Shown piece after piece: positions 13,479-17,992 of a DNA stretch of 64,000 bases. The notes below the pieces were generated by a model. That model ran no database searches and was not told where the DNA came from. It saw nothing but the letters and a program-made list of their open reading frames with translations. The translations under genes were made by a program, and so were the position numbers. Within the stretch, counting starts at the first letter, position 1, and each line of letters starts with the position of its first letter. Source of the stretch: an uncultured Syntrophomonadaceae bacterium (GTDB lineage Bacteria; Bacillota; Dethiobacteria; DTU022); NCBI GenBank assembly GCA_964436815.1, contig CAYTER010000002.1, positions 15,401 to 79,400 on the forward strand, in the 5' to 3' direction.

Positions 13479-16151
13479 CTAGACTTTGTCAATCCGGATC
13501 GCGCAAACCTTGGTTTCCGGGGTCTTCGCCACCGGGTCAAGGGCATTGCTGGTCAGCAGGTTTGTCGGGCACTCGGCAAAGTGGAAGCTCAGTGAAGCGA
13601 CACCCGGTTGACTGCGCCTGGAAATCTTGACCCTGACCTGAATTTTACCCCGCCGCGATTTGACTTCCACCAAATCCCCGTCAGCAAGATTCATCTTTTC
13701 AGCATCCAGGGGGTTAATCAGGATCTGTTCTTCCCCGCTCAGCTGGTCAAGCCCTTCAGAATACCTGGTCATCGTGCTATGGAACTGGTAGAGGCTGCGT
13801 TCGGTAGTAAGAATCAACGGAAAATCAAAGTCACAGCATTCGGCTGAAGGCCTGAACTCGATGGCCGCCAGCTTGCCTTTGCCGGTTGGAGTAGCAAATT
13901 TCTCAGTATGCAGGATTCGTGTCCCCGGGTGATCCTCTGCCGGGCAGGGCCACTGGAGCCCGCCGGTTTCAAGACGCTCATAAGTGATCCCGGCATAACT
14001 TGGCGTCAGAGAGGTCATTTCCTTAAAAATCTCCTCCGCACTGTTGTAGGCAAAACCTTCGACTCCCATCTCATTGGCAATAGCACTGATAATCCACCAA
14101 TCAGGCTTGGCTTCACCAACCGGATCAATAACCCGGCGCACGCGCTGGACGCGTCTTTCCGTATTAACAAAAGTGCCGTTCTTTTCAGCGAAAGATGCAG
14201 CCGGAAGAACTACATCAGCTTTCTGAGCCGTTTCATTGAGGAAGATATCCTGAACGACAAAAAATTCAAGTTTGTCCATCGCCTCGATCGAATGGGCGGC
14301 ATTTGCTTCTGTCAGAACCGGGTTTTCCCCAACCAGGTAGATCGCTTTGATCTCACCATTATAGGCGGCGTCAAAGATTTCAGTATGGGTTAACCCCGGC
14401 TTTCCACTGAGAGGTACGCCCCAGGCTGTTTCAAATTTCTTGCGGGCTTCTTCGTTGTCAACTTTCTGGTAACCGGTAAAGACATTGGGCAGGGAGCCCA
14501 TATCACAGGCACCCTGAACATTGTTCTGGCCGCGCAGGGGATTAACACCGGCTGAAACACGCCCGAGATTACCGGTGATCAGGGCCAGGTTGCTGACCGC
14601 CAGAACGTTATCAGTGCCGTGCGAATGCTGAGTGACACCCATGCAGTAGAGAATCGATGCCGGGCTGTTTTCAGCATAGATCCGCGCTGCTTTGGCGATA
14701 TCATCCCAGGGCAGCCCGGTCATGTCACTGACAAATTCCGGGGTGTAGCTTTCAAGCGACTTTTTAAACTGTTCATAATTCTCACAGCGTTCTTCAATAT
14801 ACTGCTGATCATGAAGCCCTTCTTCGATGATGACCCTCGCCATACCCATCAGGAGGGCTACATCACTGCCCGGTTTTAATGGCAGGTGAAGATCGGCAAA
14901 ATTAACCAGGGCAACTTCCTGAGGATTGGCAACAATCAACTTAGCCCCGTTGCGAACCGCTTTTTTAACCTGGTAACCGATAATGGGATGGGCATCCGTC
15001 GTGCTGGTTCCAACTGCCAGGATGCATTTTGCATCGCCAATTTCGGCTATCGAGTTGGTCATTGCTCCCGAACCCAGTGCTATGGCCAGACCGGCCACGG
15101 TAGGAGCGTGTCAGAGGCGGGCGCAGTGATCAATATTATTAGTTTCCATCACTGCCCGCGCAAATTTTTGCATCACATAATTGTCTTCATTAGTGCATTT
15201 TGCCGAAGCAATCATGGCAAATTGATCGCCTTTGTATTGCCCCAGTTTGCTTGCTATGAGCGACAGAGCTTCTTCCCAGCTTGCCTCGACCAGTTCCCCG
15301 TCCTTACGGATTAAGGGGTGTGTCAGCCGGTCCGGGTGATTGACAAAACCAAGGCCGTAGCGGCCCTTTACACAGAGACTGCCGCCGCTTGCCGGGCTGT
15401 CTGCTACAGCTCGCGAACTGACAACCCTGTTGCCACGCGCTCCTACGACAATGCCACAGCCGCATCCACAGAAGGGGCAGATAGTTTCAACTTCGTAAGT
15501 TGGTTCAATCGCTTTGCGGGGCACCAAAGCGCCGACCGGGCAGCGCGATACACATTCGCCGCAGGTAACACACGTTGAATCGATGATCGGTTTATCACCG
15601 AGAACACTGATCTTGGTTTTCATCCCTCGAAAAGCGAAGTCTATGCAACTGTCACCCTGGATCTCTTCACAGGTGCGTACGCACACCCCGCAGAGAACAC
15701 ACTTGTTCATATCGCGTAAATAATAGGGGTTGGAATCATCTAATGGATGATCAAGAACCGGTTTACGCATCGCCTTGATCCGCTCTTCATCCAAACCAAT
15801 ATAGCGGGTTAACTCCTGCAGCTGGCAGCGGCTGTTTTTGGCACAGCTCTGGCAGTTATAGTCATGATTAAGCACAAGCAGCTCCAGGTTAACCCGGCGG
15901 GTCTGATCCAGATCGGCGCTGGCTGTAGTGACAACCAGCCCTTCTTCAACTGGGGTCATACAGGATACAGTAGGTCTGCGCCCCTCAATCTCCACCAGGC
16001 AAACCCGGCAGATCCCGACTGAGGTAAGGTCGGGATGATCACAGAGATGAGGGATATAGATCCCGTTGGCCAGGGCAGCATGCAGGATTGAGGTGCCCGA
16101 TTCAGCCTGAATTTCCACTCCATCGATAGTCAGGGTAATTAGCTCTGACAT
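13479..16151 (-). CDS. fdhA: Selenocysteine-containing formate dehydrogenase catalytic subunit (NAD-linked FdhA/FdsA type with NuoG-like N-terminal Fe-S domains). The ORF track shows it as two ORFs (13479-15098 and 15111-16157) because of an in-frame TGA at 15111-15113.
   Basis: The 15111-16157 ORF ends ...[11 protein letters not shown]. The reading frame then continues unbroken (all codons in phase) as [20 protein letters not shown]... into the next ORF. This matches the conserved Sec context of FdhF/FdnG (xRV-U-HGP[ST]VA...GxGAM[ST]N). The N-terminus has 2Fe-2S and 4Fe-4S Cys clusters, and the C-terminal part is a molybdopterin oxidoreductase domain. The start is likely the second ATG (MSELITL), where GAGGAGGG is spaced 6 nt. 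Confidence 0.85.
15060..15110 (-). promoter_or_regulatory. Candidate SECIS hairpin immediately 3' of the UGA in fdhA mRNA
   Basis: The mRNA after the UGA reads CACGCUCCUACCGUGGCCGGUCUGGCCAUAGCACUGGGUUCGGGAGC. An outer GCUCC/GGAGC pairing and an inner GGCC-GGUCU-GGCC stem-loop are possible within ~45 nt of the UGA. Confidence 0.4.
15111..15113 (-). other. In-frame UGA selenocysteine codon of fdhA
   Basis: TGA on the minus strand separates two abutting in-phase ORFs. It falls at the conserved Sec position of molybdopterin formate dehydrogenases. Confidence 0.8.
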
Positions 16152-17992
16152 TTGCATCCCTCCTCACATGGTATATGTTCTTCGGCCTGGGGCAATCCTT
16201 CTGAGACTACCAGTACCGCCCGTACCTTTTTGGGACAAACCTCGTAGCAGGCTCCGCACTTGGTGCATAAATCCTGATCAATTTCGTGCGGCTCTTTCTT
16301 CTCCCCACTGATCGCTTCAACCGGGCACTCCTTGGCACAGCGCTGGCAACCGATACATTTCTCCTGGTCTATGCGGTACTGAAGCAGCGCTTTACAAACC
16401 AGGGCCGGGCAGCGTTTTTCATTAACATGGGCCTCATATTCATGGTGGAAATATCGCAGGGTGGTTAAAATCGGGTTGGGGGCAGTTTGTCCCAGACCGC
16501 ACATCGAGCCCTTTTTAACAGCCCAGGCCAGTTCCTGGAGCAGGTCGAGATCTTCCGGTTTGCCGCGTCCCTCGGTAATATCCTCTAAAATTGTGTACAT
16601 CTGGGCCGTTCCAAGCCGACATGGTATACACTGACCGCAGGATTCGTTCTTGGTGAAATTTAAAAAATAGCGGGCCATGTCAACCATGCAGGTGTCTTCA
16701 TCCACGACAACCAGTCCTCCGGAGCCCATCATCGCTCCGGCTGCGGTTAGTGAATCAAAATCGATTGGCAAATCAAGATGTTCTTCGGGAATACAACCGC
16801 CCGATGGGCCACCGATTTGGGCTGCTTTGAATTTTTTACCGAAGCGAATACCACCGCCGATATCGAAAACAACTTCCCTGATCGTAACACCCATCGGCAC
16901 TTCAACCAAACCGGTGTTGTTAACCTTTCCGGTTAAGGCAAAAACCTTGGTGCCCTTACTGCCATCGGTTCCAACTGCAGCAAATTGCTCCGACCCGCGA
17001 CGCAGTATCAACGGGACATTAGCCAGGGTCTCCACGTTATTAATACAGGTGGGTTTACCCCAGAGACCCTCAACCGCCGGGAACGGCGGACGGTGGCGGG
17101 GCACACCCCTTTTACCCTCGATCGATGCCAACAGGGCTGTTTCTTCACCACAGACGAAAGCGCCGGCGCCTTCCTTGATCTTGATCTTAAAGTTAAAACC
17201 TAATCCCAGGATATTATCACCAAGCATCCCGTATTTTTCAGCCTGGCTGATGGCTGTGCGCAAGCGTTTGATGGCTAACGGGTATTCGGAGCGTACGTAG
17301 ATATAACCTTCGTCAGCGCCGATTGCCCGTCCAGCAATCATCATTCCTTCAAGCACGGCATGGGGATCCCCTTCGAGCAAACTGCGATCCATAAAAGCTC
17401 CGGGGTCGCCTTCGTCAGCATTGCAGACAATATATTTCTTTGAACCGGCGCTGCTATTGGCAAACTGCCATTTCATCCCGGTGGGAAACCCGGCCCCACC
17501 GCGACCGCGCAAGCCGGAAGATTTTACTTCGTTAACAACGGCCATCGGCTCCATCTGGAGCGCTTTCTTCAAACCCAGGTACCCACCCCTGATAATATAC
17601 TCATCTATATTTTCGGGATCAATTACCCCACAGTTGCGCAAAGCCAGCCGCATCTGCTTATTGTAAAACATGATTTCATCATGGGAGACCACCCGCTCCC
17701 CGGTAACCGGGTCGCTGTAGAGCAATCGCTCAACTTTGTTGCCCTTGACCAGGTATTCTTCAACGATCTCAGCTACATCTTCTTTTTGAACCCCACAATA
17801 GAAAACATCATCCGGAAAAACAATAAATATTGGCCCTTTTTCACAGAAGCCGTGACAGCCGGACATAATTATGCGCACATCGTCCTGTAACCCGTGCTTT
17901 TTCAGCTCTTCATCAAGGGCATCCCTGACATCCAGGGCCCCTGACGAAATACAACCGGTACCGGCACAGATCAGAATATGACGTTCATACAC
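16139..17992 (-). CDS. NuoF-like NAD(H)-binding flavoprotein (beta) subunit of formate dehydrogenase/hydrogenase, with an N-terminal thioredoxin-like 2Fe-2S domain and C-terminal 2x[4Fe-4S] ferredoxin domains
   Basis: 617 aa. It has GAGAF NAD-binding and FMN-binding regions and an ESCGQCIPCR 4Fe-4S motif. The C-terminus has CIGCQRCAKECP and CTKCGACYEVCP ferredoxin motifs. It overlaps the fdhA start by 19 bp. Confidence 0.85.
   Translation of the reverse strand: MYERHILICAGTGCISSGALDVRDALDEELKKHGLQDDVRIIMSGCHGFCEKGPIFIVFPDDVFYCGVQKEDVAEIVEEYLVKGNKVERLLYSDPVTGERVVSHDEIMFYNKQMRLALRNCGVIDPENIDEYIIRGGYLGLKKALQMEPMAVVNEVKSSGLRGRGGAGFPTGMKWQFANSSAGSKKYIVCNADEGDPGAFMDRSLLEGDPHAVLEGMMIAGRAIGADEGYIYVRSEYPLAIKRLRTAISQAEKYGMLGDNILGLGFNFKIKIKEGAGAFVCGEETALLASIEGKRGVPRHRPPFPAVEGLWGKPTCINNVETLANVPLILRRGSEQFAAVGTDGSKGTKVFALTGKVNNTGLVEVPMGVTIREVVFDIGGGIRFGKKFKAAQIGGPSGGCIPEEHLDLPIDFDSLTAAGAMMGSGGLVVVDEDTCMVDMARYFLNFTKNESCGQCIPCRLGTAQMYTILEDITEGRGKPEDLDLLQELAWAVKKGSMCGLGQTAPNPILTTLRYFHHEYEAHVNEKRCPALVCKALLQYRIDQEKCIGCQRCAKECPVEAISGEKKEPHEIDQDLCTKCGACYEVCPKKVRAVLVVSEGLPQAEEHIPCEEGCKCQS

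Follow-up and report, generated by a model that had tools for sequence, protein, structure and literature searches.

The 64,000-nucleotide stretch analyzed here (the window; contig CAYTER010000002.1, from an uncultured Syntrophomonadaceae bacterium) carries a formate dehydrogenase (FDH) operon that ends in fdhA, a gene with one in-frame TGA. The operon is ordered NuoE-like / small Cys-rich open reading frame (ORF) / NuoF-like / fdhA; coordinates are window positions on the minus strand unless another contig is named. We consider it very probable that 16157..13479 is one gene encoding the selenocysteine (Sec)-ligand alpha subunit of a cytoplasmic FDH with a molybdenum or tungsten bis(molybdopterin guanine dinucleotide) cofactor, the UGA being recoded via a hairpin that follows it.

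Read in a single frame, 16157..13479 comprises 892 codons, of which one is an internal stop, a TGA at 15113..15111 that forms codon 349. The ORF list breaks the gene at this point into 15111..16157 (348 aa) and 13479..15098 (539 aa), and between the TGA and the GTG at 15098 lie four in-phase codons, CAC GCT CCT ACC. The preliminary description of this DNA had proposed that an in-frame UGA joins two adjacent ORFs; its coordinates, active-site peptide, and statement of phase are all correct, and the strand, which it left unstated, is the minus strand. The start of fdhA may be the second ATG, at 16151, because the spacing from the GGAGGG ribosome-binding site is better there. All six frames of the window were scanned for TGA codons that have 50 or more open codons both before and after them, and the fdhA TGA was the most extreme, with 350 + 543 open codons. 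The sole comparable junction, a TGA at 46371..46369, was set aside as a pair of complete, adjacent histidine-kinase genes rather than recoding. These kinase genes (46369–48858 and 44356–46359) share a frame, stand a TGA and two codons apart, and each encode complete kinase domains.

Domain searches, run on the 892-codon translation with Cys in place of the stop, recovered a continuous protein. The Pfam Molybdopterin domain (PF00384, 1.5e-83) extends unbroken over residues 277–695, across codon 349. It is preceded by Fer2_4, NADH-G_4Fe-4S_3, and Molybdop_Fe4S4 (PF04879, 4e-14) and followed by Molydop_binding (PF01568, 3.4e-27), so that the molybdopterin catalytic module carries a fused NuoG-like 2Fe-2S/4Fe-4S module at its N-terminus. 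The TIGR01591 model (formate dehydrogenase subunit alpha) scores 848.8 bits against a cut-off of 666.25, and its profile aligns end to end (1–672 of 672) with residues 225–889, again running across the TGA. The earlier assignment of the site to the Sec region of FdhF/FdnG stands in its first half: The periplasmic formate dehydrogenase-N model for FdnG/FdoG (TIGR01553) reaches 279.4 bits against a cut-off of 814.2, in four fragments, and the FdhA N-terminus, with a 2Fe-2S domain and no Tat signal, also opposes that type. Judged by these profiles and domains, FdhA is of the cytoplasmic FdhF/FdhA type, not the FdnG type.

Solved structures align over the same span. The FdsA chains 6tg9_A and 9wxb_B in the Protein Data Bank (PDB) align continuously with FdhA residues 7–889, and the best solved relatives are 9wxb_B (731 bits), 6tg9_A (713 bits), 7qv7_S (FdhF of the Thermoanaerobacter kivui hydrogen-dependent CO2 reductase, HDCR), and 1aa6_A (Escherichia coli FdhH). 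Translation, Pfam, TIGR01591, and the PDB alignments together delimit the complete gene (13479..16157), Sec349 included. In the alignments with FdsA and T. kivui FdhF, codon 349 pairs with the catalytic Cys. Direct alignment with E. coli FdhH (fdhF taken from NC_000913.3) gives 42% identity over 669 residues and places Sec140 on codon 349, His141 on His350, Arg333 on Arg542, and Lys44 on Lys264; the [4Fe-4S] ligands Cys8/11/15/42 correspond to Cys227/230/234/262. Comparison with Sec- and Cys-containing formate dehydrogenases, which the preliminary description had suggested as a check, thus bears out its placement of the active site: The TGA falls on Sec140 of FdhH and on a Cys in 120/120 of the best full-length database homologues (59–64% identical). 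These full-length homologues are all Cys forms because gene callers split Sec forms, which are never listed at full length. By alignment with homologues, then, the in-frame UGA at 15111..15113 (codon 349) would supply the catalytic ligand of the molybdenum or tungsten center and be read as Sec.

This alignment bears directly on the possibility that the locus encodes two distinct products, namely an Fe-S protein that stops at the TGA and a molybdopterin protein whose translation begins at GTG 15098. That GTG does lie four codons past the TGA, and metagenome gene callers do report two genes, but the break would fall inside one Pfam/TIGRFAM domain, 72 residues into PF00384, and the split would deprive both halves of the catalytic residue. 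No purine-rich ribosome-binding site precedes GTG 15098, the upstream sequence being CUCUGACACGCUCCUACC; the GTG is itself a conserved Val codon, part of the 5′ arm of the hairpin described below in 58/58 sequences; and Cys-type homologues are single polypeptides. We regard independent translation of the two halves as highly improbable.

The TGA recurs at the same codon in relatives. A scan of one genome per species yielded 80 related loci, of which 79 were resolved and one was unresolved; codon 349 is TGA in 61 of the resolved loci and TGC or TGT in 18. The TGA-bearing loci span Bacillota, Chloroflexota, Desulfobacterota, Planctomycetota, Gemmatimonadota, Poribacteria, and other phyla. The nearest relatives are two metagenome-assembled genomes (MAGs) labeled Syntrophomonadaceae and Bacillota (L001, SLQM01000188.1, and L002, JBNJHN010000002.1); their FdhA proteins are 82% and 81% identical to that of the window, and both have TGA at this codon. 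With its nearest relative at 82% identity, the window FdhA is, by this comparison, a new and distinct species-level sequence.

Compared with L001 and L002, the proportions of nonsynonymous and synonymous differences (pN and pS) are 0.10–0.12 and 0.65–0.73 on both sides of the UGA. The corresponding nonsynonymous-to-synonymous rate ratios (omega) are ~0.04–0.08 on both sides, values that are rough because synonymous sites are near saturation in this comparison. Such ratios indicate that the 543 codons 3′ of the UGA are under purifying selection, with constraint equal to that on the 348 codons before it. An independent metagenome contig in the European Nucleotide Archive (ENA) carries the identical N-terminal 348-aa ORF, with a second gene called 13 nt later; this rules out an assembly or read error, and it is the kind of split that the preliminary description had expected from automated gene callers.

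These observations speak against the TGA being a true stop, whether from nonsense mutation or assembly error, that would leave the locus a pseudogene or the source of a truncated protein. Mechanical ORF calling does divide the gene, and Sec machinery is not seen within the window, as would suit such a stop. The TGA, however, recurs in 61/79 related loci across phyla and matches the catalytic Sec/Cys position exactly; it is followed by a covarying hairpin that is specific to TGA-bearing genes; the 543 downstream codons are intact and selectively constrained; and the sequence is identical on an independent contig. The pseudogene explanation is largely refuted, and we give a terminating TGA a very small probability.

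The preliminary description had also pointed to a candidate selenocysteine insertion sequence (SECIS) hairpin shortly after the UGA, and comparative analysis supports one at nt 16–32, numbered from the U of UGA. The minimum free energy (MFE) fold, RNAalifold, and covariation agree on a core hairpin at 15082..15098 with the stem GUGGCC / GGCCAU (nt 16–21 and 27–32), a continuous 6-bp helix closed by the apical loop GGUCU at 15092..15088 (G22 G23 U24 C25 U26). An extended element, 15058..15116, comprises a match resembling Rfam SECIS_3 (RF01989) together with a lower stem. The window sequence folds with a 9-bp lower stem, nt 7–15 with 40–50 (15107..15064); we rejected this stem as part of the conserved element, as it is merely 63% paired across 58 sequences, and a seventh base pair, 15:33, was rejected as unpaired in 32/57 sequences.

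Conservation of the core helix was assessed in a gapless alignment of 58 Sec genes, with 16 Cys homologues as control. RNAalifold on the Sec genes returns exactly the helix 16–21/27–32, and 98.2% of helix cells are paired. In 500 shuffles, neither the pairing nor the covariation score of the real alignment was ever reached, and sliding the 3′ partners by 1–3 columns lowered pairing from 90.5% to 20–56%. Pair 18:30 occurs as GC in 32 Sec genes, UA in 10, CG in 9, and AU in 4. Both positions are synonymous third bases, 18 in a Val codon and 30 in an Ala codon, and protein constraint therefore cannot account for their covariation. The full 6-bp stem is present in 56/58 Sec genes as against 3/16 Cys genes, the Cys homologues being 63% paired. 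Within the loop, G22, G23, C25, and U26 do not vary, and 55/58 Sec genes have U24. Codon choice follows the same division: The loop Gly codon is GGT in 54/57 Sec genes versus 2/7 Cys genes with the same VAGL peptide (Fisher P = 1.4e-4). The UGA is thus followed by a hairpin that is supported by covariation and specific to Sec forms. The bSECISearch model looks for a stem-loop 3′ of the UGA, an apical loop about 16–37 nt away, and a conserved loop G (GU); the window hairpin has this fdhF-type loop placement and the conserved loop G (GU).

In one Cys-type locus, JAKQBR010000174.1, the TGT codon at 2159 is still followed by a SECIS-like stem with every pair intact, GTGGCC GGCCT GGCCAT. A Sec ancestor may have left this stem behind, as has been described for certain FdhA genes (PMC1794560).

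The restriction of the hairpin to TGA-bearing genes is also what separates Sec insertion from decoding of the UGA outside the SelB/Sec pathway, either through a reassigned code (Trp or Gly) or through near-cognate read-through as Cys or Trp. Bacteria are known to read through UGA at a low level without Sec, which, together with the failure to observe Sec machinery, lends this some plausibility. TGA nevertheless terminates 10 of the 39 family-supported ORFs of the window, so the code is standard with UGA ordinarily a stop, and a reassigned code is excluded. Stem and loop are kept at synonymous sites solely in TGA-bearing genes, which indicates a specific RNA-dependent mechanism; a Trp or Gly in place of the metal ligand would, moreover, presumably leave the enzyme inactive. 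Non-Sec decoding is accordingly very unlikely in our assessment.

Under the interpretation that we favor, a single Sec-containing FdhA, UGA codon 349 would not be taken as a stop during translation. Selenocysteine would instead be brought to the ribosome in a SelB- and tRNA-Sec-dependent manner, and after its insertion translation would run on for 543 codons.

Several observations, in addition to the rough omega values noted above, weigh against this interpretation. The first group concerns the decoding machinery, for which the preliminary description had predicted selA, selB, selC, and selD elsewhere in the genome. ARAGORN found no tRNA, hence no tRNA-Sec, in the 64-kb window; none of its 50 ORFs searched against NCBIfam matched a SelA, SelB, or SelD model; and tblastn of E. 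coli SelA, SelB, and SelD against the same 64 kb gave no hit at E ≤ 1e-3. The second concerns the hairpin itself. For the single sequence its folding energy is indistinguishable from that of shuffles (z = −0.58), and single-sequence folding statistics were uninformative overall (z from −0.94 to +0.93), so the evidence for the hairpin rests on the comparative analysis. Rfam at gathering threshold returned no match in the whole window. A permissive search of 401 nt identified SECIS_3 (RF01989) as the best family at 32.6 bits (E = 1.3e-5), below its gathering score of 63, because the lower stem of the model is unmatched. The alignment covers the model over its full length (positions 1–59) and includes both UGA and hairpin; it agrees with the consensus in the apical stem and loop, whereas a number of the model's lower-stem pairs do not form in the window. 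The hairpin also departs in part from the E. coli fdhF SECIS: The two share the UGA-CAC context, a loop GGUC at nt 22–25, and the register of G23/U24, but in the window the loop is 5 nt long and the bulged U is absent. The minimal SelB-binding motif of E. coli combines a GGUC loop of 4 nt with a bulged U on the upper stem; to our knowledge, this combination is not universal among bacterial SECIS elements.

Sec genes were encountered near one related locus. In PHAB01000001.1, a Firmicutes MAG, selA and selD lie at 13307–15500, ~5 kb downstream of a Sec-fdhA, and their products are 49% and 43% identical to E. coli SelA and SelD.

The genes upstream of fdhA encode its predicted partner subunits. 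The first operon gene (18215..18688) encodes a NuoE-like 2Fe-2S subunit that scores 158 bits with NF005722 (NuoE; cut-off 141) and also matches FDH gamma and HoxE models. The NuoF-like flavoprotein subunit (16139..17992), identified by the NCBIfam nuoF_fam model and by ferredoxin domains, is encoded by a gene that overlaps the start of fdhA by 13–19 nt. The order NuoE/NuoF/FdhA holds in most related loci, with NuoF directly upstream of fdhA. The NuoE-like and NuoF-like genes stand 222 nt apart, and the interval is occupied by a 59-aa ORF with 8 Cys (18035..18214; MEHFIDHCCEKCFNSKERPCDVFIECCLEGPLCHENEECKAAREAIINKYSHGSAFREH), taken from the ORF list. This ORF matched no Pfam family; among the related loci, only L001 and L002 have a counterpart, 76% identical and at the same position. 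Its product could be a small FDH-complex subunit peculiar to this lineage.

Candidate signals flank the operon. A promoter-like site, TTGAGG-18-TATAAT, lies upstream of the NuoE-like gene at 18932..18961 and was recognized by consensus match only. A 13-bp GC-rich hairpin at 13415..13448, 31 nt after the fdhA stop, is likely the transcription terminator of the operon; the scan lists it under the plus strand, and its minus-strand U-run is short (CUCUUUAACG).

The composition of the NuoF-like subunit suggests how the enzyme might be coupled to electron carriers. The protein has an N-terminal 2Fe-2S domain (14–91) and a C-terminal 2x[4Fe-4S] ferredoxin domain (539–600), and it aligns more strongly with B subunits of bifurcating enzymes (7t2r_B, 892 bits; 7q4v_B, 846; 8a6t_B, 813; 7p5h_B, 714) than with FdsB of non-bifurcating FDHs (387–439 bits; 6tg9_B, 387). 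Bifurcating and non-bifurcating enzymes have been proposed to differ in how many Fe-S centers the beta subunit carries (PMC7311640). A NuoF-like B subunit with extra Fe-S domains and a NuoE-like subunit, the subunit make-up of the Bfu type, are both encoded here, and by closest resemblance the NuoF-like protein would be of the electron-bifurcating (HydB/Bfu) type. The enzyme would couple formate/CO2 to NAD(H) and, because its NuoF-like subunit is of that type, probably to ferredoxin as well. It is possible, although we consider it unlikely, that the operon as a whole specifies a four-subunit, NuoG-fused, flavin-based electron-confurcating Sec-formate dehydrogenase in which NAD(H) and ferredoxin together are coupled to CO2/formate. 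The 59-residue, 8-Cys protein would then be an undescribed metal-binding subunit or maturation factor restricted to a Syntrophomonadaceae-like lineage.

Other parts of the window touch on selenium, molybdenum, and the nature of the organism. A DUF2284 gene at 19579–20133 was considered as a second selenoprotein gene and rejected: Its Pfam match is complete, and no TGA interrupts its frame. Its product matches double-selenoprotein models (MbdU, ArsM_DUF2284_UU) over the domain only, and this metal-binding protein appears, from its sequence, to be a Cys form. Adjoining it is a three-gene cluster of the xanthine-dehydrogenase (XDH) family of molybdenum hydroxylases (20150–23785), in which NCBIfam models identify an XdhA-like subunit (21446–23785), an FAD subunit (20626–~21459), and a 2Fe-2S subunit (20150–20626). 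Every equivalog score in this cluster is below its cut-off, and identity as a Se-dependent XDH was rejected on a score far under the cut-off. Genes for phosphate butyryltransferase, butyrate kinase, and a spore-associated YkwD-family protein occur at 33199–35224 and 2210–2902. Taken with the Syntrophomonadaceae-labeled FDH relatives, the butyrate and spore genes fit a butyrate-metabolizing, spore-forming Firmicute as the probable source.

The practical consequence is for annotation: The locus should be entered as a single 892-residue selenoprotein instead of two genes or a pseudogene. It would also identify its host as an organism that decodes Sec and needs selenium. With its bifurcating-type NuoF-like partner, the enzyme offers a plausible route for formate production or consumption driven by NADH and ferredoxin, and such enzymes serve interspecies formate transfer in syntrophic butyrate oxidizers. 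As a Sec-FdhA with a SECIS element, the protein is of a thoroughly known kind, the commonest bacterial selenoprotein, and its recognition here is correct but ordinary; the current understanding of Sec decoding is unchanged by this locus. The least ordinary aspects would be the probable bifurcating type of the partner subunit and the putative lineage-specific Cys-rich protein, neither of which belonged to the original finding.

The closest parallels are the two nearest MAGs, which have in common with the window the order NuoE / small Cys ORF / NuoF / fdhA and a NuoF that is 86% identical. Among bacterial selenoprotein families, that of Sec-containing FdhA is the largest, and E. coli fdhF is the gene on which the SECIS/SelB mechanism was elucidated (PMC1794560). 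Relative to its product, E. coli FdhH, the window FdhA keeps the Sec, His141, Arg333, Lys44, and all four [4Fe-4S] Cys; it differs in having an extra 220-residue N-terminal NuoG-like Fe-S module and in being encoded with NuoE/NuoF-like partners, whereas FdhH works with hydrogenase 3.

The fused N-terminal Fe-S module and the NuoE/NuoF-like partners are shared with FdsGBA (Rhodobacter capsulatus, 6tg9; Cupriavidus necator, 6vw7). FdsGBA differs in carrying Cys where the window FdhA has Sec, and its beta subunit is without the N- and C-terminal Fe-S domains of the window NuoF-like subunit. Those domains are features of the Bfu-type HydABC enzymes (Acetobacterium woodii, T. kivui, Thermotoga maritima), in that residues 2–587 of the NuoF-like protein align end to end with HydB-type subunits; here, however, the catalytic module is a Sec-FDH fused to a NuoG-like module, not a hydrogenase. 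In FdhF2-HylABC of Gottschalkia acidurici, a further Bfu-type enzyme, FdhF2 is reportedly separate, alongside HylA. The annotation history, finally, has a direct counterpart in Syntrophomonas wolfei, likened here via its published annotation: The catalytic subunit of its FDH-1 is annotated as two selenocysteine-linked genes, Swol_0785-86 (PMC3582634), the same artefact of two genes joined by Sec.

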